From Bryobacterales bacterium (GTDB lineage Bacteria > Acidobacteriota > Terriglobia > Bryobacterales > UBA6623): 64,000 nucleotides of DNA. The notes under the pieces are model-generated. The model saw only the letters and a program-made list of their open reading frames with translations, made no database searches and had not been told where the DNA came from. The DNA is taken from NCBI GenBank assembly GCA_965208945.1, contig OZ242366.1, forward strand, positions 5,290,048 through 5,354,047. Direction: 5' to 3'. Positions 9,738-35,435 of the stretch are shown in pieces. The position numbers were made by a program, and so were the translations under genes. Within the stretch, counting starts at the first letter, position 1. Each line of letters begins with the position of its first letter.

Positions 9738-10207
9738 GCATAAAGGCCGTGATTCGTGTTTCGTGTCTCGTGATTCGTGAAAAACCCGTAGGCCGGGCTT
9801 GGGGTTGCTCTCCTTGGAGTCGCCGGAGGGCAGGGGAAAAACATGTTGCGTGTCTCGCGGCTGGTGAAAACCCAACAGGCCGTGTTGCCGGCGCGGGGGA
9901 CGGCGGTCGCCCATGCCGCACCATAGCCGCCCGATGCCGCGCCACGACGCGCAGAAAAGCAGCGACAAAAGCATAAAGGCCGTGATTCGTGATTCGTGTT
10001 TCGTGTTTCGTGATTCGTGAAAAACCCGTAGGCCGGGCTTGGGGTTGCTCTCCTTGGAGTCGCCGGAGGGACAGGGAAAAACCACGTTGCGTGTCTCGCG
10101 GCTGGTGAAAACCCAACCGGCCGTGTCGCCGGTGCGGGGGACGGCGGCCGCCCATGCCGCGCCCTAGCCGCCCGATGCCGCGCCACAACGCGCAGGAAAG
10201 CAGCGGC
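9738..10207 (+). repeat. Two tandem ~233-bp units, with a third partial unit at about 10310-10480
   Basis: GCATAAAGGCCGTGATTCGTG starts at 9738 and again at 9971. Both units continue with ...GTAGGCCGGGCTTGGGGTTGCTCTCCTTGGAGTCGCCGGAGGG...GGCTGGTGAAAACCCAAC...CCCATGCCGC...GCCCGATGCCGCGCCAC, with few differences between them. Confidence 0.85.
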
Positions 10208-10891
10208 CGGGCGGCGGGGGCGGCAGTCCGAGCGGGGGTTCCTGATTGTGCTTCCCTTGCGCACCGACGGCGAAAAAAAGCCGTGATTCGTGTTTCGTGT
10301 CTCGTGGAAGCATAAAAGCCGTGTTTCGTGTCTCGTGATCCGTGTTTCGTGAAAGCCTGTTGGTCGGGCTTGGGGTTGCTCTCTTCGGAGTCGCCGCAGG
10401 GACAGGGAAAACCGTGTTTCGTGTCTCGTTTTTCCTGATTCGTGAAAACCAAACTGGCCGTGTTGCCGGTGCGGACGTAGAGGGGACACTGGCTCAGAGG
10501 TAATATTTTTTTGCTGAACAATGCCGAACAATCGTGAACAATCGTGAACAGGGAAGCCGTGACCGGGCGACAAAAATTCCGTGATTCGTGTTTCGTGAAA
10601 ACCTCGGAATTCGCGCTGGCTTGCGCCGCGCGCCAGGCTATAGCCGTGTCTCGGGTCTCATGTTTCGTGAAAACCTGAAAGGCCGCGGCTCGGGCGGCTC
10701 TTCTCTCCCCACCCGACTTGTCCCCGACGGGTGTGGATGGGTTTGTTGTTCCAACCAACGGCGTCATCATTTTCACCCTAAACCGTCCCCCGAACGAAAA
10801 AAAGACTGAAGGGCTTCAGTACCAAGAGGCAACGATTCGACAAAGCCGTGCCTCGTGTCTCGTGTCTCGTGATTCGTGTTTCGTAAAGGCC
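9749..10891 (+). repeat. Cluster of eight heptamer tracts, AAAGCC-(GTGWTTC)n-GTGAAAACC
   Basis: Tracts lie at 9749-9787, 9982-10027, 10283-10306, 10321-10357, 10414-10450, 10581-10603, 10646-10675 and 10848-10891. All are in the same orientation with 2-5 heptamers each. The 7-bp period is incompatible with coding. Confidence 0.9.
10516..10555 (+). repeat. Decamer array GAACAATGCC GAACAATCGT GAACAATCGT GAACAGGGAA
   Basis: Read directly. It has the same unit order as the array at 9698-9737 but a different core in every unit. Confidence 0.9.
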
Positions 10892-10915
10892 TTAAAATCA
10901 GTGGCTTGTGGCTAG

Positions 10916-11092
10916 CCTGCATTTCTCACCAGCCGACGGCCGAAGCACGCGATACGACCGCCAGGACTTCGTTGCGCTTGCTTGCCGTGCTCAACGTACT
11001 GTTCAAGTACGCCTGCGCGCGCCAAGCGGCTCGCGCCTCGTCCTGACGGCCCTCTCACGCACTTCGTCTCGCCACGTGGTGAGAAAAGCAGG
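10916..11092 (+). mobile_element. MITE copy 3 (177 bp)
   Basis: Termini are CCTGCATTTCTCACCAG ... GTGGTGAGAAAAGCAGG. It has a perfect duplication, CTAG (10912-10915) / CTAG (11093-11096). Confidence 0.9.
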
Positions 11093-11191
11093 CTAGTGAA
11101 CGCCTGGGAAGCCCTGATTCGCGACTCTCACGGACTGCGCTTCGCCGCCTCCCTGTCCTGTTGCCTAGCAGGCCGGGGCAGAAAAAACAAG

Positions 11192-11357
11192 ACTGAAGGG
11201 CTTCAGTACCACCAGGTACCCAAAAAGCCGTGTTTCGTGACTCGTGTTTCGTGATTCGTGAAAACCTTACAAGCAGTGGCTTGTGACTCGTGAAAGGCTT
11301 GAAAGCCCTGACGGCCCTCTCACGCACTTCGTCTCGCCGCTTGGTGAGAAATGCGGG
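11192..11357 (+). mobile_element. Composite repeat: hairpin, then heptamer tract, then right half of the MITE
   Basis: It contains the ACTGAAGGGCTTCAGT hairpin (11192-11207, also at 10805-10820). A heptamer tract follows at 11230-11266, with a single unit at 11283-11298. The MITE right arm CCCTGACGGCCCTCTCACGCACTTCGTCTCGCCGCTTGGTGAGAAATGCGGG ends at 11357. Confidence 0.8.
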
Positions 11358-11451
11358 CCAGGGATTCGGCGGACTTGCGCAAACCGTTCCGATGGTGGGG
11401 CAGGCGGCGGACATCCGAAGCAGGCCGGCTAATCTCCCTACACTGGAGGGC

Positions 11452-12282
11452 ATGCCGGTCCGCAAGGCGCGCCCCCCGCTCGGACAGCACTTCCTGCGGG
11501 ACGCGTCCGTATGCTCCCGGATCGCTGACGCCATCGTTTCGCCGCCGGAGGCTCACGTCATCGAAGTCGGGCCGGGGCGCGGCGCACTGACCGGGCGCCT
11601 GGCGGCCAAAGGGGTACCGCTCACGGTTGTCGAGATCGACGAGGCGCTGGCGGACGGGCTGCGAGACAGGTACGAAGGGCAAGCGCGGGTCGAGGTCATT
11701 TGCGCGGACATCCTCGATATCGACTTGCCGGCCATGATCGAGCAGCGCACAACGGGCCGCGCCATCATCGCCGGGAATCTGCCGTACTACATCACGTCGC
11801 CCATTCTCCGTATCGTTTTCGCCGCCGCGGCCCGAATCGAGCGGGCCGTCTTTCTGATCCAGAAGGAAGTAGCTCTGCGGCTCGCCGCCCGCAAAGACTC
11901 GCGCGACTACGGCTTCCTCTCCGTTCTGTGCCGGCTTCATGCCGAGCCGGAGTTGTTGTTCAGCGTGCCGCCGGAGGCTTTTCAACCCCCTCCCGAGGTC
12001 ACTTCGGCAGTGGTGCGGCTTCGGATGCGGCGTGACATATACGCCCCGCCCGGTTTCATCGACTTTCTCCAACGCTGTTTTACTCATCCGCGCAAGAAGC
12101 TGCTGAACAACCTCAGCGGGGTCTATCCGAGGGAAACCCTGCGGCAGCAACCCGAAACGGACCTGAGGGCGCAGCAACTCGATCTCGAAGAATTGCGGAC
12201 GCTCTGGGGCACGCTGGAGGCGGATTCGCCGTCCCGCATCGCGAGGCCGCGACTGCCGCCGCATGGTATGATTGACCGCTGA
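11452..12282 (+). CDS. rsmA: 16S rRNA (adenine1518/1519-N6)-dimethyltransferase
   Basis: The track ORF starts at 11290, inside the repeats. ATG 11452 is preceded by GGAGGG and gives MPVRKARPPLGQHFL. The SAM motif VIEVGPGRGALT and IAGNLPYYITSPIL are typical of KsgA/RsmA. Confidence 0.9.
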   Translation: MPVRKARPPLGQHFLRDASVCSRIADAIVSPPEAHVIEVGPGRGALTGRLAAKGVPLTVVEIDEALADGLRDRYEGQARVEVICADILDIDLPAMIEQRTTGRAIIAGNLPYYITSPILRIVFAAAARIERAVFLIQKEVALRLAARKDSRDYGFLSVLCRLHAEPELLFSVPPEAFQPPPEVTSAVVRLRMRRDIYAPPGFIDFLQRCFTHPRKKLLNNLSGVYPRETLRQQPETDLRAQQLDLEELRTLWGTLEADSPSRIARPRLPPHGMIDR

Positions 12283-12331
12283 TTCCCAGCCTCAAATACG
12301 GCATTGACCAGCGGTTCCCATGGAGGGAAAC

Positions 12332-13294
12332 ATGAAGAAGTTCCTGTACCTCGTTGCTGTCTTGGCCGCCGCCGGCCTAGTCAACTTGTCCATTGTCGAG
12401 TCGGCGCCGCCGCCCGCCGCCAAGCGGATCAACCGCGCGATCGAGCTGCTCGAGAAAGACCAGCCCATCTACTACACCCAGATCGCAGCGACCGACATCG
12501 ACTACGAAAAAGGGAAGGAGATGGTGAACACCTGGGCCGACTACATCAGCGTCGAGATGGAGCACGGCGCCTACAACATTCCCGGTCTGCGGGCGTTCAT
12601 GCGGGGCCTGGTCGATGCCGGCCCGACGAAGAGCGGCCACCGCACGCCCACCGTGATCTGCACGCTCCCGGTAGGCGGCATCAGCGCCGAAGTCATGCGG
12701 GCGAACTACTGGATGGTCGAGCAGGTGCTGGGATCGGGTGTCCACGGCATTCTTCTGTGCCATGCCCGTTCGCCGGAGGCCGTTCGAGTGTTGGTGGAAT
12801 CCGCGCGATTCGTAACCAATAAACGCGCTGTGGGATCAGGCGGTCTCGGCGAGGGAATGCGAGGCGCCGGCGGACAAGGTTTCGCTTCCCGGATATGGGG
12901 CATCAGCGGCGACGAATACACCAGAAAGGCCGAGCCCTGGCCGCTGGATCCCGAGGGAGAGATTCTGCTCGGCCTGAAGATCGAAGACCGTCACGCTCTG
13001 CAGAATGCCGAGGCGAGCGCCGCTGTTCCCGGCGTCGGGTTCGCCGAATGGGGTCCGGGCGACATGGGCATGTCGCTGGGCATACCCGGAGCGGAGGGCC
13101 GCAGCTCAGCGATCATGCAGCAGGCCAGGAAGAAGGTCTTCGACGCGACCAGGAAGGCCAAGATCGCGTTCCTGAACGGCGTCAATCCGGAAAACGTCAA
13201 GCAGATGATCGACGAGGGCGTGCGAATCGGCTCAGGCGGCCAGGAAGCGGCGGAGATCGGCCGCAAGTACACGAAGCGCAAGATGCCCTGGTAG
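12332..13294 (+). CDS. HpcH/HpaI aldolase / citrate-lyase-beta family protein with a signal-peptide-like N-terminus
   Basis: I moved the start to ATG 12332 (GGAGGG 5 nt upstream). The N-terminus is MKKFLYLVAVLAAAGLVNLS. ADYISVEMEHGAY and LGLKIEDRHALQNAEASAAVPGVGFAEWGPGDMGMSLG match the HpcH-family TIM-barrel motifs. Confidence 0.65.
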   Translation: MKKFLYLVAVLAAAGLVNLSIVESAPPPAAKRINRAIELLEKDQPIYYTQIAATDIDYEKGKEMVNTWADYISVEMEHGAYNIPGLRAFMRGLVDAGPTKSGHRTPTVICTLPVGGISAEVMRANYWMVEQVLGSGVHGILLCHARSPEAVRVLVESARFVTNKRAVGSGGLGEGMRGAGGQGFASRIWGISGDEYTRKAEPWPLDPEGEILLGLKIEDRHALQNAEASAAVPGVGFAEWGPGDMGMSLGIPGAEGRSSAIMQQARKKVFDATRKAKIAFLNGVNPENVKQMIDEGVRIGSGGQEAAEIGRKYTKRKMPW

Positions 13295-13302
13295 CGGCCC
13301 GA

Positions 13303-14364
13303 TCAATACAGCCGCACACCCCTCGGCCCCGGAGGCAACTCCATGTGGACCGAGTCGACGAAGCGAACTTTCCGGGACGCCTTCGTCATGACCAGCGTCT
13401 GACTCCGGCAGCCTTCGCCAAAGAACCGGATACCCTGCAAGATGCCCCCACCGCTGAGACCACCCGTCACGCCGGTGGCGGCGAAGATGATCGTCTTGCC
13501 CGGGGCGAGGTCTTCGGAGCTGTAAACACGATGGGGGTCGGTGATCCCCATGCGCTTGACGCGCTCTTCGAGTTCCGGCGTATCGATCACAAGGCGACCC
13601 AGCATCTCTCCATGAAGACAGCGCATCGCAGCCGCCGAGATCACACCCTCCGGCGCGCCGCCGATGCCCATGACCGCATGAACGCCCGTCCCCCGAATGG
13701 CGACAGACACACCCGCCGACAGGTCGCCATCGCCGATCAGTCGAATGCGGGCTCCCGCCTCGCGAATCTCCCGGATCAGCTTCTCGTGGCGCGGCCGGTT
13801 CAAGACGACGATGGCGAGGTCGTCCACGTCGCGGTCGAGCGCACGGGCGATGCGCTTCAGGTTTTCCGACACCGGCAGGTCAAGATCAACCTTGCCGCGG
13901 CAGGCCGGGCCGACGATGATCTTCTCCATGTAGCAGTCGGGGGCGTGCAGGAGACCGCCCTTTTCCGACGCGGCCAAAACGGCTAGCGCCCCCGGCGTGC
14001 CCGTGGCGCAAAGGTTCGTGCCTTCAAGGGGGTCCACCGCGATATCGACCGCGCGGTACTCTCCTTCATTCCCCGAGCCCGGGCCGACCTTCTCGCCGAT
14101 ATAGAGCATCGGCGCTTCGTCGCGCTCGCCCTCACCGATAACGATCGTGCCGTCAATCGGGACATCCTCGAAGGCCGCGCGCATCGCTTCGGTGGCGACG
14201 TGGTCGGATTCCTTGCGGTCGCCATTGCCCATGGTGCGGGCGGCAGCGATGGCCGCTTTTTCGACCACGCGGATGAGCTGCAAGGAGAGTTCTTCTTCCT
14301 CCTGCACAGTCATGCTGCCGAACTTGGTTTCCCCGCCCGGCCAGAGGCCGATTGTGTCATTCAT
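13303..14364 (-). CDS. glpX: Class II fructose-1,6-bisphosphatase
   Basis: Contains [55 protein letters not shown] and [15 protein letters not shown]. The internal Met at 14313 is an alternative start. Confidence 0.9.
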
Positions 14365-14387
14365 GGCGCTTCATGCCTTTCCTGTCG

Positions 14388-15893
14388 TCAGCCTCTCTCT
14401 TGATACTGTCCCTGGAGGCGCCGCAACTCCCGCGTCAATTCCGCTATGAGATCGTCGTGGCCGGGCTCGGAGTAGAGATTGTTCAGCTCATTCGGATCCT
14501 GGTGCAGGTCGAAGAGCTCCCAATAGCCATCTTCGTTGTAGTATTCGATCAACTTGTAGCGCCCGGTGCGCACCCCGCGGTGGGGGCTGACGCGGTGGGC
14601 CGTGAAGTACCGGAACGAAGGGTCCGTGCGAGCTTCCGGCGGCAAGTCTTTCATTGCCCAGGAGTTATCGTAGTAGGCATAGAAGATCGATTGGCGCCAA
14701 TCGTCGGGCGGACTCCCGCGAAGGAGGGGCGCCAGACTCTCGCCCTGCATTCGTTCCGGAACATCGATCCCCGCCAGATCGAGAATCGTCGGCGCGATGT
14801 CGACGTTGAGGACCATGCGTTCCTCGACGTGTCCCTTCAAGGGCAGCCGCGGATAGCGGACCAGGAACGGAATGCGCAGCGACGGCTCGTACATGAAACG
14901 CTTGTCATACCATCCATGCTCGCCGAGGAAGTAGCCATTGTCGGTGGTATAGACGATGAGCGTGTCCTCGGCGAGGCCGGTCACATCGAGGTACTCCAGA
15001 ATCTGGCCGAGGTTTTCGTCGACGCCGTAAACCGCGCGGTGATGATCCTTGACGAAACGGTCGAAGATCCAATCCTTTTTCGCGGCGGCGCCGAGACCTT
15101 TCGGCAGGTCTTCGTAGTCGCCGGCAAGGCTGATCTCGAACTTCATGTCCTCCGCTTCCCTGGCGAGAGGACGAGTGGAGTAATCATCGTCGTACGTCGC
15201 CGGCTTGGGCCACGCGATGTCGCCGTACAGGTTGGCGTGCCTTGGGGCGGGCGTGAAAGGCCGGTGCGGCGCCTTGTGCTGATAGACCATGCAGAACGGT
15301 TCGTCACCGCGCCGCCGCAGGAAATCCAGCGCGAAATCGGTTGTGAGGTCCGTCGCGTAGCCGCGCTCCTGGCGGCGTGCGCCGTTCCGGATGAAATCCG
15401 GATCGAAGTAGACTCCCTGCCCCGGCAACACCTTCCATTCATCGAAGTCGTTCGGGTCTTGACGGATATGCCACTTCCCGAACAGGCCGGTTCGATAGCC
15501 GGCCTCGCGAAGCAGGCGGGGAAACGTAGGGAGGTTGGGATCAAGCGCCTCGATCTCGTCGCGCTTTTCGGAATTGCCCCGAATCCCGTGAACGTGGGAA
15601 TAGCAGCCCGTCAGCACCGACGCCCGGCCCGGCGCGCACAGCGAGTTCGTACAGAAGGCATTCTCGAACCGCACACCCTCGTTGGCGAGCCGATCCATGT
15701 TGGGCGTCCGGAGGATCGGGTGCCCGGCGCAGCTCATCTGTTGCGCTTGCTGATCGTCGGTCATGACGAACAGAATGTTGGGGCGAGGGTAATCGGGCCC
15801 GGAGCCGCAGCGCGCCGCGAAAGCCGCTCCGACCGCTCCCAGGCTTTGCAAAGCCTCACGTCGGGTCGGTCTGAAAGCTCTCGTGCCGGGCAT
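14388..15893 (-). CDS. Tat-exported sulfatase (formylglycine-dependent)
   Basis: The N-terminus of the track ORF is repeat read-through. ATG 15893 gives [37 protein letters not shown] and the C-x-P-x-R site ([12 protein letters not shown]) are present. Confidence 0.85.
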
Positions 15894-15972
15894 TACCGAA
15901 CCAGTGTACCGAATGCGCCGCCCTGGCCCCGCTTCGTGACAGCCACATGGGAGTGGACAGAAAAAGATAAAA

Positions 15973-16242
15973 GCCGTGTTTCGTGTCTCGTGTTTCGTGA
16001 TTCGTGAAAACCTTGGGTGGCGGCTTGGTTCACTCCAGCAGGAAATGTCTTGGGGCCAGTGAACCGTAAAAGCTGTGTTTCGTGTCTCGTGTTTCGTGAA
16101 AACCACAAAAGCCGTGTTTCGTGATTCGTGTCTCGTGATTCGTGAAAAACCTTACGGGCCTTGTTGCTGGGGCGGGCGGCTCGCGTTTCGTCCTGGCGGG
16201 CCTCTCACGCAGTTGACCTCGCCTGGAGGTGAGAAAGGCTGG
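15973..16242 (+). mobile_element. Composite repeat: three heptamer tracts, a hairpin module, and the right half of the MITE
   Basis: Tracts lie at 15976-16012, 16075-16104 and 16114-16151. The hairpin is GGTTCACT(16027-16034)-N23-AGTGAACC(16058-16065). The MITE-like right arm ...CCTCTCACGCAGTTGACCTCGCCTGGAGGTGAGAAAGGCTGG ends at 16242. Confidence 0.8.
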
Positions 16243-16264
16243 CTCGAACGTTCTCCCGGATTCG

Positions 16265-18151
16265 TCAACGCCCGGCATCAGGGATCCGGTCGGCGACCAC
16301 CTCGGCTACATCGGCCACAACGAAGTCCTCACGCCCGGCGTGACGGGCAGCATCGTTGAGCATGATCGGACAGTACGGGCAGGCCACGGCAACCTTGGAC
16401 ACGCCGGTGGCGCTTACTTCCGCAAAGCGCCGGTGATTGATGCGCCCCCCGGGCGGGTCCGCCTTGTCATCGGCAATGAAGAGCTGGGCGCCGCCAGCTC
16501 CGCAGCAGAACGTCTGGGAACGGCTGCGTTCCATCTCGACCACCTCGACACCAGCAACCGCAAGCGCATGCCTTGGTTCTTCGACGACTCCCCGGCCTCG
16601 GGCCAAATAGCAAGGGTCGTGGAATGTGATGGTTTCGTCCCTCTTCTGAAGTTTTCCCTCAAGCTGGGGAAGCAACTCCGCAAGCAACTCCGTATGGTGC
16701 ACCACCGTTATGCCCAACTCCTGATAGGCAGGGTTCTGACGATAGTCCCTATCGAGCATCCGCGCGCAGTGGGGGCAGCAGGTCACTAGATTCTTGACGC
16801 TTGCGGCTCGAAACGAATCGATGACCTTTTCGGAAAGGTCGAAATAGAGATATTCGTTGCCCGCGCGGCGCGCCGGCTCGCCGCAACAGGTCTCCCGATC
16901 AAGGACACCCCACGCGACACCCGCCTCATCGAGAACCTTTCTCATCGCTCGAGCTACGTCCTGGCCGTGCGGGTCGTAACTCACGCCGCAGCCCAACCAG
17001 AACAGCCACTCCTGACCACCGTCGAAAACGGGGAACCCTTCTGTTTGTATGAGCCTTCGCCGCGTTTCGTGCGCCACGCCCCAGGGGTTGTGCGGCGAGC
17101 GCTCCATGGTTGTAAACAGCGCGTTCAACTTGTCGCTGTTGGTGCGGCCCTCGCTGACGAGCCCGCGGCGCATGTCCAGAATCTTGGGGCCGACATGCTC
17201 GATGCCTACCGGGCAGGCATCTTCGCAAGCGCCGCACGACAGGCACTGGAACAAGTCGACCTCACTGACCCAGCACTCGCCGGCCTGGACCTGGCGGGGC
17301 GTTCCCGCGACGGTCTGGCCTCCGGCCAGCAGGCCACGCTGCAGTTGCAGAACGATCTCCTTGGGGTCGAGACTCTGACCGACAGCATTTGCAGGGCAGA
17401 CATCCGTGCAGCGTCCGCATTCCACGCAGGAGTTGACATCGAGGATGTCTTTGGCGGACAGCCGGTTGAATCGCCAGAGCCCGAAATCCTCATCGTCGTC
17501 CTCTCGCAAAGCACGCATGCCGCTCGTCGTCTCGGACCGAAAGAAGACCGCGACCGGCCCCAGCATCAAGTGGAGATGTTTCGAGTTCGGTATCACCCAG
17601 AGCATGCCGAGAAGCGACAGGGTGTGAACCCACCAGTTCAGCCGCCAAGCACCGCTGCCCGCTTCCAACGCCCGCCATCCAAGCAGATAGGTGACCATCA
17701 GCGCCGCGATCAGCACCGCAACGATCCCCGAGGAGAGCGACAGCTCACCCAGCACTTGCGGCCGCAAGACAAAGCGCCTGATGCTGAGCCCGACGATCCC
17801 AACCAGCACGGCCACGGCCCAGGCGGCCGCGAACCAGCCATACCAACCGCGATCCGGCCGCACGCCGTCAAGTCCTTGAAATCCCTGCATCATGTGCTCC
17901 AGACTGACCCATGCGAAGGCAAAGAAACCCCACATCACGAGCGCATGGAGCAGGCCGGTAACGGGACGGGCGCGGATCACTTTCGTCTGCAACAGGACTT
18001 CGAGAAACACCCGGCGCAGCCGCCGAGCTACGCCGTCCCAGGGAAGCGGTTGCCGAAGCGACTCTCCGAATTTGAGCCGGTTCCTCACGACACGGAGGAA
18101 ATAGCCGCAACTGGCCACCGTCAGAATTGTCAGAACGAGGGAGGTCTGCAT
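16265..18151 (-). CDS. Membrane-bound Fe-S oxidoreductase: HdrD/DsrK-like region with two 4Fe-4S motifs and two CCG domains, fused to an N-terminal polytopic (NarI/DsrM-like) domain
   Basis: I moved the start to ATG 18151 (MQTSLVLTIL), which avoids overlap with the divergent gene. About 6 TM helices are followed by CVECGRCTDVCPA, CLSCGACEDACPV and the CCG motifs TCCGEPARR and FCCGAGG. Confidence 0.75.
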   Translation of the reverse strand: MQTSLVLTILTVASCGYFLRVVRNRLKFGESLRQPLPWDGVARRLRRVFLEVLLQTKVIRARPVTGLLHALVMWGFFAFAWVSLEHMMQGFQGLDGVRPDRGWYGWFAAAWAVAVLVGIVGLSIRRFVLRPQVLGELSLSSGIVAVLIAALMVTYLLGWRALEAGSGAWRLNWWVHTLSLLGMLWVIPNSKHLHLMLGPVAVFFRSETTSGMRALREDDDEDFGLWRFNRLSAKDILDVNSCVECGRCTDVCPANAVGQSLDPKEIVLQLQRGLLAGGQTVAGTPRQVQAGECWVSEVDLFQCLSCGACEDACPVGIEHVGPKILDMRRGLVSEGRTNSDKLNALFTTMERSPHNPWGVAHETRRRLIQTEGFPVFDGGQEWLFWLGCGVSYDPHGQDVARAMRKVLDEAGVAWGVLDRETCCGEPARRAGNEYLYFDLSEKVIDSFRAASVKNLVTCCPHCARMLDRDYRQNPAYQELGITVVHHTELLAELLPQLEGKLQKRDETITFHDPCYLARGRGVVEEPRHALAVAGVEVVEMERSRSQTFCCGAGGAQLFIADDKADPPGGRINHRRFAEVSATGVSKVAVACPYCPIMLNDAARHAGREDFVVADVAEVVADRIPDAGR

Positions 18152-18308: not shown

Positions 18309-18837
18309 ATGCCCGCCTGGAGCTATTTCGATTGCGACGTCATGATCGGCACGTCGCGCATCCCGATTCGCGACGAGATGCCCGACGCTGATGCCCTGCT
18401 GCGCGAGATGGACCGGTACGGCATCGAAAAGTCCCTCGTCTACTATCGCGAGGGAGCGAACCCGCGAAGCGCGCGCGAGGCGGAGAAGTGCGATCGCATC
18501 GAACTGTGCTGGGTGCTGCCGTTGACGCTGCGAAGCCCCGAGGACCGCCTGGAAGACCACGTCGACAGGATGATCGAAGCCGGCGCCAAGGCTGCCCGCT
18601 TCCTGGCGAGCGACGGTCCTTCCGATCCACCTGTCATCCTCAAGCCGTTCCTCCTCGGGCGGGTGTACGAGAGACTGCAGAGACACCGCGCGCCGCTGCT
18701 GCTGGAGGGCGCGCCGCTCTACCGTCCCGAAGGCACGGCGAGATACGGCCTCGAGGACATCGACGCCATCTGCAGCAGCTTTCCCGATTTGCCGGTGATC
18801 CTGCTGCGCACTCACCGAAGCCTCCAGACACAGCTAG
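18309..18837 (+). pseudogene. Amidohydrolase-2 (PF04909-like) gene that appears to be 3'-truncated
   Basis: The first 176 aa align by eye with the paralog at 56185-56955 (FDCDVMIG / IIDTNVYV; FPDLPVILLRTH / LPNLPGLRLVIQNR). About 85 C-terminal residues, including the FGSHYPF region, are missing. The frame runs into MITE copy 4 and then into the end of the ankyrin array. Confidence 0.6.
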
Positions 18838-20027: not shown

Positions 20028-20861
20028 CTATCGGTATCCGGGAGGCACGTCATAAATCGTGCCCATCTCCGAGTTGACGAAAACAACGGCTGTTGCCCCA
20101 GCGGCAATACCTAAGTTAAGCGCAGCATAACTCGCGGGTAGATCCTGCACCCATAGACGAAACAATTCCGCTGCCAGCACAGAACCTGCGAGGGTGATCC
20201 ATCCCGGCCATCTTTTTGAGAACGGGCGGGGGATGCGTACCTTGCGTACATCCGACTTCGGGAAGGTACGTGTCTGTCCGTCCTTGAGCCACAGCGTGAT
20301 GGTGTCGGTCGTGGCCGAGTCGAAACGTCCTCTGATCCTCCGGTTCTCCTGGGGGACCGCGTCCCGGTACAAAGTCACTTCGGTCTTGGCGTTATGCGGC
20401 ACGACTTGCACACGGGACCAGTCCGCTTTTTTCGCCACCTTATTCACCTCGGACGCTAGCGACATTCTGAGCCGCTGAGAGACGGTCGAGCCTTTGATCT
20501 TTTTGTTCCTCCGTGCGTAATCCCAAGGTGTCCTGCCGGCTATGCTTGACGATCTCGGGTTGGCACCCGCTTCCAGCAATACCTTGATCACTACGGGGTC
20601 GGAGGTCTTTCGCGCCGCCCAATGCAAAGCGGTGAGTCCTTTGGGGTCCTGCTCGTTCGGATCCCTCCCGGCGCTGAGACAGGCCCTCACCTCGTCCACC
20701 GTGGCGGCCTCGAAAAACTTCGCTGTATTCCAGTCCTTGCAACTCTCCTCCGCCGCCGCCGGCAGCGGCAAGCCGGCCACAAGCAGCAGGCACGCCAGCC
20801 CGGCGGCCGTGGCCTTCTTGAGAAGACTTCCGTGGTTTCTGTTTCGCATGAGATTCCTCAT
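20028..20861 (-). CDS. Secreted ankyrin-repeat / beta-module / 2-TM protein, tandem paralog B (tail shortened by an in-frame TAG)
   Basis: Start at ATG 20861 (MRNLMRNRNHGSLLKK...). The architecture matches paralog A. It ends ...DVPPGYR-TAG, where the other copies have Met. A further 24 in-frame codons (20027..19956, including the original TGA) still encode the family tail LPQGSQQPGDQDSDSTKQEDPRD. Confidence 0.8.
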   Translation of the reverse strand: MRNLMRNRNHGSLLKKATAAGLACLLLVAGLPLPAAAEESCKDWNTAKFFEAATVDEVRACLSAGRDPNEQDPKGLTALHWAARKTSDPVVIKVLLEAGANPRSSSIAGRTPWDYARRNKKIKGSTVSQRLRMSLASEVNKVAKKADWSRVQVVPHNAKTEVTLYRDAVPQENRRIRGRFDSATTDTITLWLKDGQTRTFPKSDVRKVRIPRPFSKRWPGWITLAGSVLAAELFRLWVQDLPASYAALNLGIAAGATAVVFVNSEMGTIYDVPPGYR

Positions 20862-20981
20862 CGCAACATCAATCTGAGTCGAAGCTCCTCGTTCAAAACC
20901 GTCGTTCCGCAATGCTCGATGGCCTCGCCGGCCGTCTTCACGCGCATGATGACAAGCCTCAGGCGGCACTCACAGGGTCGC

Positions 20982-22919: not shown

Positions 22920-23039
22920 CGCAACACCAGGCTGACCTGAAGCTTCTTGTTCAAAACCGTTGTTCCGCAATGTTGGATGGCCTCTCCGGCAGTCTTGTCG
23001 CGCATGATGACACGCCTCAGGCGGCACACCCAGGGTCAC

Positions 23040-25941: not shown

Positions 25942-28900
25942 ATGGAAGCAACGACCAGTTTCGAGGGGCAGGCGCTTCCCGGTCGCGGCGCTGCGTTGAT
26001 CGGCTCCAAAACCCCGGTTCGTCACTCTGGTTTCGCGATCTCGGGTGTGAGCTCTGCCGTGAGAACTATTTGTCCGTTCCTTGCCATGGCTGCAGTGTTG
26101 GCGGCAACGGATCTCGCATCCGCCCAACAGTTCGACCCCGTTGCCCGCGACATCCGCACCGGAGTCTACCGGGGCCACGTCGTCACCTACGAGGTTGTTG
26201 ACGGACTCGCGATCTGGGACGGCGATATCATCCTCGGCACCCCCGAGGAACTGAGCCCCGAGCCTATGCCGACACCCGGGAACCCGCTCGACGGCCGCAA
26301 CAAGATCTCAGCGGTTAGCAGCAAGGAAAGACTCTGGCCCGGCGGCATCATTCCCTACGTCATCGATCCGGAACTAACGAACCCGCACGTCCCTGTCGCG
26401 ATCCAGCATTGGAACGAGAACACCGTCATCCAGCTTGTGGCAAGAACGGATCAGCCGAACTGGGTTCGCTTTGAGCCCGGCAGAGGATGTTCGGCGGAAG
26501 TAGGCATGGTCGGCGGAGAACAGACAGTCTCTCTCAGCAAAGGCTGCAGCCCAGGAGACGTCGTTCATGAGATCGGTCACGCGGCCGGGCTCTGGCACGA
26601 GCACCAACGAAAAGATCGAGATCCCTACGTCTGGGTATCGCCCAGCCCCTTGGTTTTTGATCCATGGTCTTACGTGAAAGATGGGCCCTACGCAGTGCCT
26701 AGCGGCCCGTATGACTACGGTTCGAACATGCATTACGCTTGGCTCGGCACGTTAGTAACAATCCCGCCCGGCATAACGCTCGGAAGAGGCGGTCAGCAGC
26801 TCGGGACGGGCTCGAGTACAGGACTCTCCGCCGGGGATATCGACGGCGTCAGCCGGCTGTATGGGACGATCCCGACCAGGACAACCGTCTCGGCAAACGT
26901 CGCAGGTCTGCTGATAGAGGTTGACGGTGAAACTTACACCGCGCCGCACGGTTTCGACTGGGAGCCAGGCAGCATCCACACGATCGGCGTTGCGTCGCCC
27001 CAAAAGGACGTGCACGGGAGTGACTACATTCGATATCTATTCGCCAAGTGGAGCGACGGCGGTGCGCAAAGCCACTCCGTGACGGCATCTTCGGAAACCA
27101 CCGTCTTCATAGCGAATTTCATTGAGCAGATCAGGCCCGAGGTTACAGCACACCCTCCAGAGGGCGGGACCGTCAGGTTAGACCCTCCCACCGTCGACGG
27201 CTTCTATCCGTGGTTCTCTCTTGTCAAAGCCTACGCCGAACCCGCCGAGGGTTTCTCGTTCGAACACTGGAAACCCTGGTGGTTTCTACCGCTCCGCGGT
27301 GGCTTTTCCAGCAATCCCGCACTAAATCATGTCGGGCAAAGTTACCCGGCCTATTTCACACAGCAACCCCTTACCACGATCGACACGAACTTTCCGGGTA
27401 CCCATGTCCTAGTGGACGGCTCCGAGACACTCCTGCCCTCCAACTTTGCCTGGGAAGCCGGCAGCACTCACACGCTCGGATTCGGCGGTCCTATTGGTGA
27501 GGTCCAGACCGTCAACGGCTTGCCTGGCCACTTTATATTCGATGGCTGGAGCGACAACGGCGGCGCAACGCACAACATCACCGCTTCAGCCGAGCCGGCT
27601 ACGATCACGGCGAATTTCACGAGGCAGGTTTATGTAGAGACGTTTTCCCACGGATCGGGGGGGATAGAAGTGCAGCCCAGCGGTTCGGAGGGTGACTTCC
27701 ATAACCTCTCCACCACGGTTCACTTGACCGCGCGACCCGCTCCGGGTTTCAAGTTCGTGTCCTGGCTCGGAGACTTGTCCGGAACCAAGAACCCGCAATC
27801 GATGCTCATGGACTCCAACAAATGGGTCCGGGCTTTCTTTCTCGATGAGGAAACTTACAAATCGGCCAAGCTGACCTCCGGGAAACCATTCAACTTGCTC
27901 TTCGGTCCCGGCGGGGCCAGCGTGGAAGGCTACAACGGCTACTGGATTGACGTGCCGAGGGGGGCCACTCAACTCGACATTCGTCTCGTCACCACCATGC
28001 CAAACGCCGAGATCGACCTGTACGCAAACCGTGACATCCGTCCGAGCGCCATGTACGGCGCAAACAATGAAGGGCTCATCGGGTATGAAAGTCAGTACTC
28101 GGCCACGGGGCCGGGAGGCGACGAGACGATCACCATCACGTCGGCGTCAAATCCGCCCCTCGAACCGGGGCCTTACTTCATCGCCGTCCACGTACGCAGA
28201 CAGGGAGTGCGCGTCAATAGAACCTTGACCGCCGCCGTAACCGTCTCGGAGGAGGAGATTGCCGCCCAGGCGCCTCATTTCGGCATCCCTGCTTCCCTGA
28301 TCACCACGCAGGAAGGCGAGACACCGGCGCCGCAACGCCTCGAGATCCGCAACTCGGGCCGCGGGACGCTGGACTACGGAATCACCACGGACCAACCCTG
28401 GCTCTCCGTCTGGCCCAATCAAGGTTCCTCGGCGGGGGAAACGGACACGGTCGAGATTACCGCAGACCCGTCGAATCTGGAGCCGGGGACATACGAGGGC
28501 TCGATCACCATCATCGAGCAGCAACCTGCGGGAGGCTTTTCCGGCCTTTTCTCAAAGAGTACGACGCCCGCATGGCCGTTCACGGTGCCGGTGACGTTGA
28601 TTGTCATCCCGGAGAGTTCGGAGCCCCCCCGTTCAGTCCCCCCTTCCGAGCCTAATACCACGGGCCCTTCCGCGGGAGACGGCGGTCCGGCTGTCGAGGC
28701 TAGGCTATATGCCCCCAATGATGTGACCGTGGATGCGGCCGGCAACCTCTTCATCGCCGATACGGGCAACCGCCACATTCGTAAGGTGGACCCCTCTGGC
28801 ATCATTACCGTTATCGCCGGAATCGGTGAGGAGGGCTACACCGGGGACGGCGGCCCGGCGATCGACGCTCGGCTAGCCTACCCCGCAGGCGTGACAGTAG

Positions 28901-29670
28901 ATGCGGCCGGCAACCTCTTCTTCTCCGAATATTTCGACCACAGCGTCCGCAGGGTAGACCCCTCGGGAACCATTACCACGATCGCAGGAACGGGTGAGGA
29001 AGGCTTCGCCGGAGACGGTGGTCCGGCGGTCGAGTCGCAGCTATCCTCCCCCGCAGGCGTAGCCGTGGACGCGGCCGGCAACCTCTTCATCGCCGATTCT
29101 GGCAACCGCCGCATCCGTAGGGTGGACCCCTCGGGTAACATTTCCACCTTTGTCGGAGGAGGAGATGCTTCGGAGGACGGTGGCCCGGCTGTCCAGGCCC
29201 AGCTAGGCAGCCCCTCCGGCGTGGCCGTGGACGCGGCCGGCAACCTCTTCATCGCCCTTATCACCAATAGCTCCATACGTAAGGTGGACCCCTCGGGAAC
29301 CATTTCTACGATTGCCGGAGTCGGTCGGTGGGGCTTCTCCGGGGACGGCGGCCCGGCAGCACAGGCGCACTTGAGCACCCCCTCCGACGTAGCCGTGGAC
29401 GCGGCCGGCAACCTCTTCATCGCCGATGAAAACAATCACCGCATTCGCAGGGTGGACAGCTCGGGCATCATCACCACGATCGCCGGAAACGGTGAGCGGG
29501 GCTTCGCTGGTGATGGCGGACCTGCGATCCAAGCTCAGTTGGACCACCCTCGGGGCGTGGCCGTAGACGCGGCCGGCAACCTCTATATTGCCGATCATGG
29601 TAACCACCGCATCCGCAAGGTGGACCCCTCCGGCACCATTACCACCGTTGCTGGAACCGGAGAAATATAG
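25942..29670 (+). CDS. Large secreted multidomain protein: astacin (M12A) metalloprotease, beta-sandwich repeats, PPC domain, BACON-like domain and a six-bladed NHL propeller
   Basis: Contains the full astacin signature HEIGHAAGLWHEHQRKDRD (26566-26622) and the Met-turn SNMHY. InlB-B-repeat-like modules include APGFKFVSWLGDLSG. The PPC-like segment is YWIDVPRGATQLDIRLVTTMPNAEIDLYANRD. The BACON-like segment is LEIRNSGRGTLDYGITTDQPWLSVWP...GTYEGSITI. Six NHL blades read GDGGPA...VAVDAAGNLFIAD..NHRIRKVDPSG.ITTIAG. GTG 26047 (MSSAVRTICPFLAMAAVLAATDLASAQ) is a better signal-peptide start than ATG 25942. Confidence 0.85.
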   Translation: MEATTSFEGQALPGRGAALIGSKTPVRHSGFAISGVSSAVRTICPFLAMAAVLAATDLASAQQFDPVARDIRTGVYRGHVVTYEVVDGLAIWDGDIILGTPEELSPEPMPTPGNPLDGRNKISAVSSKERLWPGGIIPYVIDPELTNPHVPVAIQHWNENTVIQLVARTDQPNWVRFEPGRGCSAEVGMVGGEQTVSLSKGCSPGDVVHEIGHAAGLWHEHQRKDRDPYVWVSPSPLVFDPWSYVKDGPYAVPSGPYDYGSNMHYAWLGTLVTIPPGITLGRGGQQLGTGSSTGLSAGDIDGVSRLYGTIPTRTTVSANVAGLLIEVDGETYTAPHGFDWEPGSIHTIGVASPQKDVHGSDYIRYLFAKWSDGGAQSHSVTASSETTVFIANFIEQIRPEVTAHPPEGGTVRLDPPTVDGFYPWFSLVKAYAEPAEGFSFEHWKPWWFLPLRGGFSSNPALNHVGQSYPAYFTQQPLTTIDTNFPGTHVLVDGSETLLPSNFAWEAGSTHTLGFGGPIGEVQTVNGLPGHFIFDGWSDNGGATHNITASAEPATITANFTRQVYVETFSHGSGGIEVQPSGSEGDFHNLSTTVHLTARPAPGFKFVSWLGDLSGTKNPQSMLMDSNKWVRAFFLDEETYKSAKLTSGKPFNLLFGPGGASVEGYNGYWIDVPRGATQLDIRLVTTMPNAEIDLYANRDIRPSAMYGANNEGLIGYESQYSATGPGGDETITITSASNPPLEPGPYFIAVHVRRQGVRVNRTLTAAVTVSEEEIAAQAPHFGIPASLITTQEGETPAPQRLEIRNSGRGTLDYGITTDQPWLSVWPNQGSSAGETDTVEITADPSNLEPGTYEGSITIIEQQPAGGFSGLFSKSTTPAWPFTVPVTLIVIPESSEPPRSVPPSEPNTTGPSAGDGGPAVEARLYAPNDVTVDAAGNLFIADTGNRHIRKVDPSGIITVIAGIGEEGYTGDGGPAIDARLAYPAGVTVDAAGNLFFSEYFDHSVRRVDPSGTITTIAGTGEEGFAGDGGPAVESQLSSPAGVAVDAAGNLFIADSGNRRIRRVDPSGNISTFVGGGDASEDGGPAVQAQLGSPSGVAVDAAGNLFIALITNSSIRKVDPSGTISTIAGVGRWGFSGDGGPAAQAHLSTPSDVAVDAAGNLFIADENNHRIRRVDSSGIITTIAGNGERGFAGDGGPAIQAQLDHPRGVAVDAAGNLYIADHGNHRIRKVDPSGTITTVAGTGEI
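28660..29670 (+). repeat. Six tandem NHL-blade coding repeats
   Basis: The core GT(G/A)GA(T/C)GCGGCCGGCAACCTC recurs at 28729, 28897, 29065, 29227, 29395 and 29563. Spacings are 168, 168, 162, 168 and 168 nt. Confidence 0.9.
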
Positions 29671-30775: not shown

Positions 30776-30913
30776 TGTGAAATCCTCCGGGTCAAGCGGT
30801 GTTGACACCGATCCGCCGGACGCCGCCGAGACGCGGCGTTCAGGGCGATGTGAGGCAGAGTACATCAGGCGACCTTGTCTGCCGCAACTTGTGAAACCAT
30901 GATGGGAGGGTAG

Positions 30914-30947
30914 CCTGCATTCCTCGCCGCGTGGTGAGAAATGCAGG
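30914..30947 (+). mobile_element. 34-bp mini-MITE: the two termini joined, with the interior deleted
   Basis: Sequence is CCTGCATTCCTCGCC-GC-GTGGTGAGAAATGCAGG, a hairpin made of the left and right termini. Flanks are GTAG / CTCG. Confidence 0.7.
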
Positions 30948-31023
30948 CTCGGAGTGTTGGCGCGTTTTATCGTGCGCGCCAAACTACTCCCGAGTCGTTG
31001 AAATCGACTTCCGCCGGATTGCC

Positions 31024-31485
31024 ATGGAAGCCGATACAGAAATCTCAAGAAAGGTCAACACAACCATGAGGCCGCAACTTTCCTGGAGTTATTGGAAGAC
31101 GCCCGTGATTTTCGGAGCGAGCTTCTGCATGCTGCAAATCCTGGTGGCGTTCGCGCGATTCGGGGGCCAGAAAGGTTGGATATTGGCCAACCCGTACGAG
31201 ATACCGGCAATGCTTTTCGGGCTCGCCATGTTCTTTCTGTGCGGCCTGCTGGCTGGTTTGCTGGTGCAACACCTGTTGAGGGGCTCTACCGGAGCCTGGC
31301 GCTACGTCCTGCTGGGCGGCGTGGGGCTGGCGACTCCTTTCGCGATCATGTTCAGCTTGGGCGGGGGGTTGCTCGGTCCGCCTGGAGTACTGATCGGAGC
31401 TCTGGTTCCCTACCTGGTGCTGGTCGGAGTCCCGGTATTGCTCCATCAATCCTGGTTGCACTTTCGCAAGCCCGCGACGCGGTGA
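31024..31485 (+). CDS. Small hypothetical membrane protein (about 4 TM helices)
   Basis: I moved the start to ATG 31024 (or 31066). Hydrophobic helices include VIFGASFCMLQILVAFA, MLFGLAMFFLCGLLAGLLV, YVLLGGVGLATPFAIMF and VLIGALVPYLVLVGVPVLL. I cannot name a family. Confidence 0.5.
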   Translation: MEADTEISRKVNTTMRPQLSWSYWKTPVIFGASFCMLQILVAFARFGGQKGWILANPYEIPAMLFGLAMFFLCGLLAGLLVQHLLRGSTGAWRYVLLGGVGLATPFAIMFSLGGGLLGPPGVLIGALVPYLVLVGVPVLLHQSWLHFRKPATR

Positions 31486-31492
31486 AAAAGCC

Positions 31493-31683
31493 GTGATTCG
31501 TGTCCCGTGTCTCGTGTTTCGTGAAAAGCATAAAAGCCGTGATTCGTGACTCGTGACTCGTGTTTCGTGAAAACCTCGGAATTCGCGCTGGCTTGCGCGG
31601 CGCGCCTGGAAAAAAGTCTTGTTTCGTGATTCGTGTCTCGTGACCCGCATGGACTTTGTCTCGGCGCGTGGTGGGAATGCTGG
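31493..31683 (+). mobile_element. Composite repeat: three heptamer tracts plus a MITE-type right terminus
   Basis: Tracts lie at 31493-31529, 31539-31575 and 31619-31648. The module CTCGGAATTCGCGCTGGCTTGCGC sits at 31575 (also at 10603). The right end GTGGTGGGAATGCTGG (31668-31683) is followed by TTAA (31684-31687), which contains the mfd stop codon. Confidence 0.8.
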
Positions 31684-34600: not shown

Positions 34601-35187
34601 TACACGTCGATGATCCCGCCTCGCAGGGAGAACTGTCCGACCATCTCGACGGGGTCGTGCTTCCCGTAGCCGACCGAGGCGAGGCCTTCAAGCAGATCTT
34701 CGACGAAGAACTCGTCCCCGAGTTCAATCCTCCAAGCGAGATTACGAAGGAACTCCTTCCGGGGGATCTTCATCAGCGCGGACCGAATCGGGACAACGGC
34801 GATCGAAGCCGCGCCTTCGGCGATGCGCCACAGCCCGATACCGCGCCGCTCGCTGACTTCAGGGTGCGGGGATTGCCCGTGGTACGGAAGAACCTCGTGC
34901 GCGGGCAGGACGAAGGGCGGCCCGCGATGTTTCGAGAAATCGAGCAGATCGTGAAACGCCGTGAGCGTCTCGCAAAGCGCCTCGGCAACGGGATTCGACT
35001 CAACCAGCAAGACCATCGGCCGGTCGGTCTGCTTGTACAGCAGGAGCAGGTAGAGGGCCTTAGCCGTGGCGTTGAGCCCCGACAGCCGCAGTGTTTGCGG
35101 CTCAGACCTCCTGACGGCGTGTTCCAGCGCCAGGAACGCAGGGTGGCGCGAAGCCACATCGAAGAAATCAGTGAGGCTAACCTGCAT
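31684..35187 (-). CDS. mfd: Transcription-repair coupling factor
   Basis: 1167 aa. The helicase motifs GDVGFGKTEVAMRA, LLIVDEEQRFGV and LTLTATPIPRTLQMSL, and the overall length, match Mfd. ATG 35187 lies inside the left TIR of the element at 35181-35435. GTG 35157 is an alternative start. Confidence 0.92.
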   Translation of the reverse strand: MQVSLTDFFDVASRHPAFLALEHAVRRSEPQTLRLSGLNATAKALYLLLLYKQTDRPMVLLVESNPVAEALCETLTAFHDLLDFSKHRGPPFVLPAHEVLPYHGQSPHPEVSERRGIGLWRIAEGAASIAVVPIRSALMKIPRKEFLRNLAWRIELGDEFFVEDLLEGLASVGYGKHDPVEMVGQFSLRGGIIDVYSPEAPHPVRIEMLGDQVESIRFFDAENQKSIQRVDQALLLPLTEYPVAAPGRVDENANGDAEDHEILPLGWEFSAQSTAARTSSILDLFDNPLMVWSERAAIQADGEKLWEKLEDGYEASGSVGPAPANFYFTPSGFAEEAQRGSQLHLEELAVEAAGESWLHLGTQPTPNFQGNVPHFVRELQAQVSGGRRALIAGHSPGDVERLADILTENEIGFQLSLKDPFKAASPYLEEKARLAGPLANVMLVESPIRRGVTLPDSNLVLYGHEDLFASSDLVARPKKGKSARSTFLSDLQDLKEGDLVVHAEHGIGRFVGLRQIEHAGRREDLMLIEYAERARLYLPLHRLDLIQKYHGAGGKPPPLDRMGGQTWSRTRARVKAKLLDMADELIKLHAARGKTPGFAFSADSNWQREFEEAFEFTETPDQIQSVKDIKKDMESDRPMDRLVCGDVGFGKTEVAMRAVFKALGDGKQVALLAPTTVLAFQHFETFSQRFASFPIEIESLTRFRTRSQQKEILERLAEGRIDVLIGTHRLLSKDVGFSDLGLLIVDEEQRFGVRHKERLKQLTKNVDVLTLTATPIPRTLQMSLVGLRDISIIQTPPRDRLAIQTVVAPSSDQIIRDAIERELARKGQVYFIYNRVESIWRIAAYLQKLVPRARIGVGHGQMSTRELEKVIFKFMRYEYDVLLSTTIVENGLDIPLANTMLIQRADLFGLSELYQLRGRVGRSNRRAYAYLLVDEDVELSSTARKRLAALREFSELGSGFKIAALDLELRGAGNLLGAEQHGQIAAVGFETYCRLLEEAMRKLEGEEVEEEARTTVKLRLDLHIPTDYIRDETQRLQAYKRLAEIRTREDRSRLLEELRDRYGSLPKPVHHLADHALVKSRAERMRIQSIERKRGCWMLRFSEDSRVDATRLMRFLAETPGVTFSPDRLLEWRRTEKQTLSAATALKDLDALLDRLEHRPEPPATMV

Positions 35188-35435
35188 TTCTCAGCACTTG
35201 TCGTCCGGAGAACACGGTAAAAAGGCCGTGGTTAGTGGATAGTGGATAGTTATTAGTGAAAACCATTGGCGGAGGACTGGTTCGCTCCAGAAGAAATGTC
35301 TGACGGCCCGGGGAACCTTAAAGGCCGTGATTCGTAACAACCCTTACAAGCCGTGTTGCCGGCTCCAAGCGGCTTGCGCCTCCTCCTGACGGCTCTCTGA
35401 CACACTTCACCTCGCCAGGTAGCGGGAAATGCAGG
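35181..35435 (+). mobile_element. 255-bp long-form MITE: both TIRs plus an internal heptamer tract and hairpin module
   Basis: The left end is CCTGCATTTCTCAGCAC and the right end is GTAGCGGGAAATGCAGG. Flanks are CTAA (35177-35180) / CCAA (35436-39). Inside are the variant tract GTGGTTA GTGGATA GTGGATA GTTATTA GTGAAAACC (35228-35264), a hairpin module (35279-35317) and GTGATTC (35327-35333). Confidence 0.85.

Follow-up and report, generated by a model that had tools for sequence, protein, structure and literature searches.

A 64-kb stretch of the Bryobacterales contig OZ242366.1, referred to here as the window, contains intergenic regions filled with short tandem arrays of a seven-nucleotide unit (heptad), interspersed with other short modules and with copies of a miniature inverted-repeat transposable element (MITE). 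Reading the sequence, we counted 18 such tracts, all on the plus strand, including one upstream of an RrnaAD-family gene (ksgA-like) and three upstream of a sulfatase gene, and every tract listed in the initial annotation was found again in its place. The two-heptad pattern GTGWTTCGTGWTTC, with at most one mismatch, matched the window 31 times and on the plus strand only, against 0.13 matches expected from dinucleotide-preserving shuffles, and the period-7 arrays found by Tandem Repeats Finder coincide with the tract positions. The companion modules that had been named alongside the tracts were all recovered by BLAST or regular expressions, both in the window and at other loci: the hairpin hpB at 16027-16065 and 35277-35317, ACTGAAGGGCTTCAGT at 10804 and 11191, CTCGGAATTCGCGCTGGCTTGCGC at 10603 and 31575, and MITE right arms at 11307-11354 and ~16228. 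The tracts are indeed shuffled together with these modules (Table 1). The impression that the architecture is an unrecognized one also held: no Rfam family matched the whole window at gathering thresholds or positions 9400-16400 at E ≤ 1, and the heptad motif and the MITE end are printed in the searched literature only as unrelated primers.

Each tract sits within a cassette of about 45 nt, with the consensus AAAA(G)GCC GTGATTC GTGTTTC GTGTCTC GTGATTC GTGAAAA(A)CC, in which a leader and a cap enclose most often four units. We pooled the window with loci fetched from other genomes and contigs (numbered L001, L003 and so on, with genes located by a crude filter on open reading frames (ORFs) and GC content at third codon positions), giving 302 tracts, of which 128 have four units, 87 two, 68 three and 13 five. 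The range of one to five units given in the initial annotation therefore stands, with a peak at four, but the unit, written there as GTGWTTC, is better given as GTGWYTC: GTGATTC, GTGTTTC and GTGTCTC dominate the pooled set, GTGACTC is rarer, and GTGACCC, GTGCCTC and others are occasional. The tracts at 10643-10675 and 10414-10450 are degenerate, and the one at 31619-31646 has no cap.

Unit preference within the cassette depends on position. The commonest order, GTGATTC GTGTTTC GTGTCTC GTGATTC, occurs in 19 of 151 tracts; the first unit of four-unit tracts is GTGATTC in ~80%, the third unit of the cassette has C at its position 5 in ~75%, and the final unit is GTGATTC or GTGTTTC. In a base matrix built from tracts picked only by their leader, cap and a 28-nt gap, with the interior unconstrained, heptad positions 1, 2, 3, 6 and 7 hold one base in 97–100% of cases, position 4 varies between A and T and position 5 between T and C, and the other bases at positions 4 and 5 (0.6–2%) are as rare as changes elsewhere. 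Variation is thus two-state at two positions per unit, which fits the reshuffling of existing units rather than decay. Tracts of minor unit flavours (GTGGWTA, GTTTTTW and GTGGCTW) have an unchanged leader and cap and again most often four units, and each is uniform internally, as expected from homogenization within an array; the tract at 35228-35255 consists of GTGGWTA and GTTATTA units between the usual leader and cap, and that at 11276-11298 likewise places GTGGCTT and GTGACTC between them. GTG is common to nearly all flavours. The tract is therefore a ~45-nt element with a master sequence and not an open microsatellite; the position-specific unit order, the peak at four units and the fixed ends rule out a simple microsatellite or contingency locus.

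Several other explanations of the cassette were discarded. A structured RNA element, one of the roles floated in the initial annotation, is not supported by the blank Rfam search or by the folding of the cassette, which is no better than that of shuffled sequences on either strand (z = +0.33 and +0.77). A promoter or terminator role was dropped because positions 9400-11600 show no excess of promoter-like or terminator-like consensus sites. The leader and cap are not a target duplication, as AAAAGCC/AAAGGCC and AAAACC/AAAAACC mismatch inside cassettes, and MITE excision footprints were rejected as a source of the heptads because canonical heptads contain no TA.

The MITE to which the cassettes are linked is bounded by 15-nt inverted ends, CCTGCATTTCTCACC ... 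GGTGAGAAATGCAGG, which enclose 95 elements of 156–316 bp; a lone cassette has no inverted ends. Mapping CCTGCATTTCTCACC together with the tracts revealed a recurrent layout of left end, tract beginning ~47 nt in, and right end, and alignment showed a single MITE family in which ~37 nt at the left end and ~85 nt at the right are constant while the centre is replaceable. This centre is a 62-nt segment that completes a long imperfect palindrome in the 179-bp tract-less form (34 very similar copies), a cassette in the short tract-bearing form (19 copies), or, in the long form seen at 35178-35438, a cassette followed by hpB and a one-unit cassette. Across three genomes, most columns of the tract-less and short tract-bearing forms show at least 90% conservation, which indicates a young family. 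YTAR lies on either side of the 95 elements; 55 of them have a matching central TA, and in 28 all four bases are identical. An empty site, GTGGCTAGTGAAC, is present in L025 and L084 and corresponds to the filled site GTGGCTAG-[MITE]-CTAGTGAAC at 10912-11096, these being paralogous copies of a module and not orthologous loci. Insertion at YTAR with duplication of TA or of 4 bp is the behaviour of IS630- or IS5-group DDE elements, and, judging by the target site, the transposase would probably be of IS630 or IS5 type. Three ORFs in intervals bounded by the inverted ends and of a size suited to an autonomous insertion sequence (IS) were set aside as host-like, judged from their translations only (an RpoD-like sigma factor, an amidohydrolase-like and a desuccinylase-like protein).

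The proposal that the tracts are cargo of a long-form MITE is accordingly correct in part: a tract is the variable centre of one MITE form, but of 182 tracts lying away from locus edges a complete MITE encloses only 23%; for 26% there is a single MITE end at up to 300 bp, and for 51% no end at all over that distance. The most frequent right-hand neighbour of a cassette is hpB (55 of 182), and chimeras of hpB and the MITE right arm have their junction at the shared string CTGACGGCC. A recurrent mini-element of ~35 bp consisting of the two MITE ends only (CCTGCATTCCTCGCCGCGTGGTGAGAAATGCAGG) was also noted at 30911-30949 in the window and in L010 (~5457), L029 (~7407), L043 (~2273), L078 (~3792) and L082 (~4600); it could be either an internal-deletion derivative or a minimal mobile form.

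Table 1. Repeat features of the window, in window coordinates, and public gene calls over the repeat-filled region at other loci.
Feature	Position	Strand	Details
Tract-less MITEs	2393-2575, 7304-7507, 18834-19018, 38281-38477, 39706-39888, 41646-41827	+	
Cassette, 4 heptads	9742-9786	+	Family consensus order (GTGATTC GTGTTTC GTGTCTC GTGATTC); leader AAAGGCC, cap GTGAAAAACC
Tandem unit, 234-241 bp	9748-10205	+	Cassette + modC + tail; 1.9 copies, 1 to 4 in related genomes
Module modC	9785-9843	+	More copies at 10025-10083 and 10359-10411
Cassette, 5 heptads	9975-10026	+	4 heptads in orthologous L003 tract
Cassette, 3 heptads	10276-10311	+	Degenerate cap GTGGAAGC
Cassette, 4 heptads	10314-10357	+	Cap GTGAAAGCC
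Degenerate cassette	10405-10450	+	GTGTTTC GTGTCTC GTTTTTC CTGATTC; cap GTGAAAACC
Module modE	10456-10522	+	
Cassette, 2 heptads	10572-10603	+	4 heptads in orthologous L003 tract
Degenerate cassette	10640-10675	+	GTGTCTC GGGTCTC ATGTTTC; cap GTGAAAACC
Hairpin module modF	10804-10824	+	ACTGAAGGGCTTCAGT; second copy at 11191-11211
Cassette, 5 heptads	10840-10891	+	Degenerate cap GTAAAGGCC
Tract-less MITE, 179-bp form	10912-11096	+	Inserted at CTAG inside another repeat module
Cassette, 4 heptads	11222-11266	+	Upstream of RrnaAD-family (PF00398) rRNA adenine methyltransferase gene (ksgA-like)
Short cassette of other flavour	11276-11298	+	GTGGCTT GTGACTC; cap GTGAAAGGC
Solo MITE right arm	11307-11357	+	
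Cassette, 4 heptads	15967-16012	+	First of three upstream of sulfatase gene
Hairpin module hpB	16027-16065	+	GGTTCACT-N23-AGTGAACC
Cassette, 3 heptads	16068-16104	+	Sulfatase-gene site
Cassette, 4 heptads	16107-16151	+	Sulfatase-gene site
MITE right-arm remnant	16176-16243	+	After cassettes
Cassette, 4 heptads	31484-31529	+	Cap GTGAAAAGC
Cassette, 4 heptads	31530-31575	+	
Module modD	31575-31606	+	CTCGGAATTCGCGCTGGCTTGCGC...; second copy at 10603-10637
Capless cassette	31610-31683	+	TTGTTTC GTGATTC GTGTCTC GTGACCC; fused to degenerate MITE right end
Long-form MITE	35178-35438	+	Left end, GTGGWTA-flavour cassette (35219-35264), hpB (35277-35317), one-heptad cassette (35319-35343), right arm
Sole opposite-orientation MITE of window	59858-60044	-	
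Public gene calls over repeat-filled region	L001 13162-14679; L003 13634-15010; L004 9360-10667		

Site-by-site comparison of genomes that are 93–98% identical in their genes showed that the cassettes turn over at fixed places. Upstream of the sulfatase gene, where the flanks are fixed, L003 has one two-unit cassette, the window three cassettes and hpB, L002 a different mixture, and L004 five cassettes, two of them of the GTGGWTA flavour. Among six genomes, the cassette upstream of the ksgA-like gene counts 4, 4, 3, 4, 2 and 2 units, its gaps, of 7 and 14 nt, being in phase. Beyond the cap, three genomes have a modC-like module, one has a MITE arm and another hpB. The unit of cassette plus modC (234–241 bp) is present in one to four copies among related genomes. 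Tract length is thus polymorphic between related genomes, as the suggestion of a slippage-prone spacer would have it, and orthologous sites in addition differ by whole cassettes of unlike unit order and flavour and not by simple tandem copies. Together with the chimeras, these same-site differences suggest two processes, namely mispairing of heptads and recombination or template switching between copies. Since the compared genomes differ by 2–7% in genes, the turnover occurs on a species-level time scale and need not amount to hypermutation.

The repeats extend well beyond the window. Several metagenome-assembled genomes have contigs that encode a protein identical to its GlpX (13303-14364) in the same gene order, and where coding DNA was compared these genomes share 94–98% identity with the window. 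When one genome per species was scanned for three heptads followed by GTGAAA, at least 82 stretches matched, and among the matches listed nearly all came from three Bryobacterales (Acidobacteriota) genomes: OZ241991.1, a complete 6.3-Mb chromosome carrying tracts, APA_bin_29, which is 93% identical to the window over the syntenic part, and RHO3_bin_12. The few from other phyla, among those listed, are pure (GTGATTC)n microsatellites that lack the leader. With a stricter pattern, 31 contigs were found among 241 million metagenome records, mostly in MKWU01, a metagenome of the sponge Aplysina aerophoba (PMC5649159, PMC5099237). Collections of plasmids and phages yielded nothing but one chance 32-nt match inside a haloarchaeal ppsA gene. 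The tracts, which turn up at many loci in the three Bryobacterales genomes and in sponge metagenomes and so are not a local duplication, are genome-wide in at least three Bryobacterales species and confined, in the collections searched, to one sponge-associated clade. Sponge-associated Acidobacteria are uncultured and their intergenic DNA has so far been undescribed.

Among the outliers, pure (GTGATTC)n runs of 3–13 units ending in GTGAAA occur in unrelated phyla (L015, L023, L024, L026, L040, L052, L059, L079 and L087). In the Lysobacteraceae loci L059 and L087 the run apparently occupies the same spacer between trpG (anthranilate synthase II) and trpD (anthranilate phosphoribosyltransferase), genes that we identified by eye from their translations; in L040 (Tepidisphaerales) two pure runs face each other, and Anaerolineae contigs have further CACGNNN-type arrays nearby. 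A 1.2-kb contig from a coral sample that is labelled Rhodothermales (L035, JAAXGO010000265.1) carries a full cassette with leader, cap and the usual downstream sequence, and is probably a mis-binned contig of a Bryobacterales symbiont.

The repeats are strikingly co-oriented. All 14 canonical tracts of the window and seven of its eight tract-less MITEs with both arms read on the plus strand, over 40 kb. Degenerate reversed heptads (ACGCAACACGGACGAAACACGGAGATCAC, 60150-60190) adjoin the sole reversed MITE. Across loci (the window and L007-L119), neighbouring repeat sites 0.6–20 kb apart have the same orientation in 84 of 91 cases (p = 7e-18), as do more than 90% of module pairs of any types 1–8 kb apart and 10 of 11 neighbouring sites on the sponge metagenome contigs. 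Orientation bears no relation to the way the flanking genes point: their four possible arrangements around tracts are equally common (26/23/23/20), with no preference for the promoter or the terminator side. GC skew, whether raw per locus or at third codon positions, showed no link to orientation. It does go with the A/T skew at third codon positions once the coding-strand effect is removed: in 49 of 67 loci the A-rich strand is that of the tract (p = 2e-4 by binomial test, 6e-6 by t-test), with a pooled value of +0.056 (bootstrap interval 0.038–0.073), and a second data set from the sponge metagenome gave the same direction in seven of eight loci. On OZ241991.1 both orientation and A/T bias are patchy along the chromosome, so that a simple two-replichore pattern is not seen there, and on some contigs orientation flips between loci 16–56 kb apart. 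In all 34 tract-less copies, the strand complementary to that of the tract forms by far the more stable version of the MITE's long hairpin (-113 vs -87 kcal/mol), a difference of the kind that G-T wobbles read as A-C mismatches on the other strand could give; the hpB hairpin is, in the opposite sense, slightly more stable on the tract strand. The simplest reading of the co-orientation would be a link to replication fork direction that has been blurred by rearrangements and that concerns the whole repeat family and not the heptads specifically. We regard the local co-orientation and its association with a strand bias in base composition as the aspect most deserving of follow-up; if it does reflect replication, these repeats would naturally mark fork direction and past inversions in genomes with an uninformative GC skew.

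Taking these observations together, we think it probable that the cassette belongs, as a module prone to slippage and recombination, to a selfish mosaic family of non-coding repeats with a DDE-type MITE at its core, and that it has no required function for the host. In this model, the MITE would insert at YTAR and duplicate TA or all four bases, using a transposase supplied in trans. Cassettes would spread by two routes, being either carried inside the tract-bearing form of the MITE or exchanged by homology- or microhomology-guided recombination or template switching between copies, in which the joints could be the cassette itself or short strings that the copies have in common, among them AAAGGCCGTG and CTGACGGCC. 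The second route would gain or lose whole cassettes at a site and swap the module behind the cap, while mispairing of near-identical heptads, through slippage and correction of the two variable positions, would shift unit number by 7 nt and reshuffle unit types. The family would then be a small mobile element that carries a tiny hypervariable array, with the array serving as a joint for module shuffling, so that close relatives come to differ in intergenic regions as long as ~1.8 kb.

Several points weigh against this model. With half of the tracts having no MITE end within 300 bp, transposition alone does not explain the spread. The ~1 Mb of sampled loci, which are a sample and not whole genomes, yielded no autonomous element, nor, outside syntenic copies of the region, any multi-copy ORF family, except for one paralogue family common to the window and L003. 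Co-orientation in 84 of 91 neighbours is unexpected for a symmetric DDE MITE at a palindromic target and calls for a strand-specific mechanism or selection, which the model does not supply. Finally, a binding site constrained in length and sequence would also be consistent with the sharp mode of four units and with the near-perfect conservation of GTG and TC.

That last point leads to the alternative that survives best, in which the cassette is a multi-site protein-binding array on double-stranded DNA, bound by one dimer per heptad cooperatively along four to five heptads, with the MITE scattering the sites. The analogy is with the ribbon-helix-helix protein omega of pSM19035, which binds runs of WATCACW heptads at operator and centromere (PMC9499535, PMC2441792); there too the 7-bp units are contiguous, a few to about ten per site, and AATCACG, the complementary-strand reading of our commonest unit, agrees with WATCACW at six of seven positions. 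Five near-invariant heptad positions with two bases allowed at each of the others, a unit number tightly centred on four, and a cassette that is unstructured as a single strand are all what a duplex binding site might look like. Yet conservation at the invariant positions does not exceed that in the rest of the young MITE, so that it could not be taken as a sign of selection and no extra constraint is demonstrated. The units AAACACG, AGACACG and AGTCACG, which are also frequent, and the flavours GTGGWTA and GTTTTTW alter the omega-like core, tracts have no preference for promoter-containing intergenic regions, and no candidate protein was identified or candidate gene linked to tracts. Omega sites, moreover, are promoter-associated sites of Firmicutes plasmids with a known protein, unlike a chromosome-wide repeat likely to exist in hundreds of copies. 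For these reasons we hold a binding array of this kind to be unlikely, if worth keeping in mind.

Unlikely in the same way, and to be given slender weight, is a functional strand-specific cis element, made of sites for a protein that would read GTG (or CAC) every 7 nt and used by the repeat family itself or co-opted by the host in a replication-linked process. Such an element, were it real, would explain both the co-orientation over tens of kilobases and the way orientation follows the strand bias in base composition. Another reading, for which we see only a small chance, would have the cassette, or the repeat family as a whole, tied to replication as a strand-specific signal or substrate, through insertion or selection on the single-stranded DNA of the fork or as a polar signal for a DNA-tracking protein. 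The co-orientation of neighbours in both data sets, an orientation that ignores gene direction and tracks third-position A/T skew, and the strand difference of the MITE hairpin in every copy would all be accommodated, and a bias of orientation linked to replication has been documented in several IS families, among them, in one genome, IS630 (PMC3971601). Neither raw nor third-position-corrected GC skew shares the link, however, the orientation on OZ241991.1 is patchy and not in two blocks, hpB is slightly more stable on the opposite strand to that favoured by the MITE, and the bias is common to all modules without singling out the heptads.

Detached cassettes raise the further idea of an independently mobile cassette with its own enzyme, added singly beside existing cassettes in the manner of repetitive extragenic palindromic (REP) sequences moved by a REP-associated tyrosine transposase (RAYT). 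Differences between orthologous sites by whole cassettes of unlike order and flavour, the half of all tracts that lie far from any MITE end, and the constant ends of every cassette would fit such an element. We nevertheless consider it very unlikely: the cassette lacks the hairpin needed for REP/RAYT and IS200/IS605 chemistry, its leader and cap tail mismatch in a way that a target duplication would not, no clean empty/filled pair was found for a single cassette, and no enzyme gene lies beside cassettes in the sampled loci, although no scan aimed at RAYT or HUH genes was made. Least probable of all, and barely credible in our view, is an unstructured motif array acting in RNA (GUG every 7 nt, or CAC on the other strand) to titrate or recruit an RNA-binding protein or Rho, which could draw on the precedent of HutP, an RNA-binding protein that reads a triplet repeated at fixed 7-nt spacing, on the lack of structure in the cassette and on the GTG common to nearly all flavours, but which conflicts with an orientation independent of flanking genes (so that transcription would run in either sense at random), with the lack of promoter-like sites in the main cluster and with the blank Rfam search.

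Several known kinds of repeat resemble this family in part. Like MITEs of the IS630/Tc1-mariner or IS5 groups, the element is 179–300 bp long and non-coding, has inverted ends, duplicates YTAR, occurs as many near-identical intergenic copies and has an empty/filled site; it differs from them in its alternative centres, one of which is a heptad array, in ~92% local co-orientation, in the half of cassettes that are detached from MITE ends, and in having no autonomous partner in the sampled loci. The BOX elements of Streptococcus pneumoniae, boxA-(boxB)n-boxC, are likewise interspersed, intergenic and non-coding, with a leader, a variable number of repeats and a cap, but their repeat unit is ~45 bp with a stable secondary structure, whereas ours is 7 nt in an unstructured array of unrelated sequence carried by a MITE. 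Bacterial interspersed mosaic elements (BIMEs) of enterobacteria, which are based on REP sequences, are also mosaics of a few short modules whose order and number vary and differ between strains at the same intergenic site; in BIMEs the unit is palindromic, orientation alternates and a RAYT enzyme is involved, whereas here the central module has no palindrome, all modules are co-oriented and no RAYT is known. The short tandemly repeated repetitive (STRR) sequences of heterocyst-forming cyanobacteria are closest in unit size, being runs of one 7-nt unit (e.g. CCCCAGT) at many intergenic places of a genome, but they are unrelated in sequence, come from a phylum other than that of Bryobacterales and have no fixed leader or cap. 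In none of these four does an array of 7-nt units come together with a constant leader and cap, a unit order that depends on position, transport by a MITE and pronounced co-orientation.

The repeats also affect gene calling. ORFs that cover the tracts had been regarded as artefacts, and we agree. In the window, minus-strand ORFs such as 9613-10776 and 9620-10573 read through tracts and span non-coding repeats, and in public assemblies ORFs of 435–505 aa without a Pfam match cover the region that matches window positions 9600-11450. Public assemblies thus contain false ORFs of up to 500 aa on account of the repeats, and short-read assemblies probably break at them.

A few other features of the window were noted in passing. 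One 1.8-kb intergenic region contains two 10-bp tandem repeats, GGGAAATCGT in 2.5 copies (9708-9732) and TGAACAATCG in 3.6 copies (10512-10550), the latter being part of modE, which recurs at other loci. A 1242-aa ORF (25942-29670), which encodes a repeat-domain protein, contains coding repeats in tandem at 28723-29660, the period being 168 bp (5.6 copies) or 330 bp. On the minus strand, positions 20028-23951 hold four tandem paralogous genes of ~300–345 aa, whose L003 counterparts are 79–88% identical and have faint ankyrin matches; this array looks like a fast-evolving gene family of a kind common in sponge symbionts.

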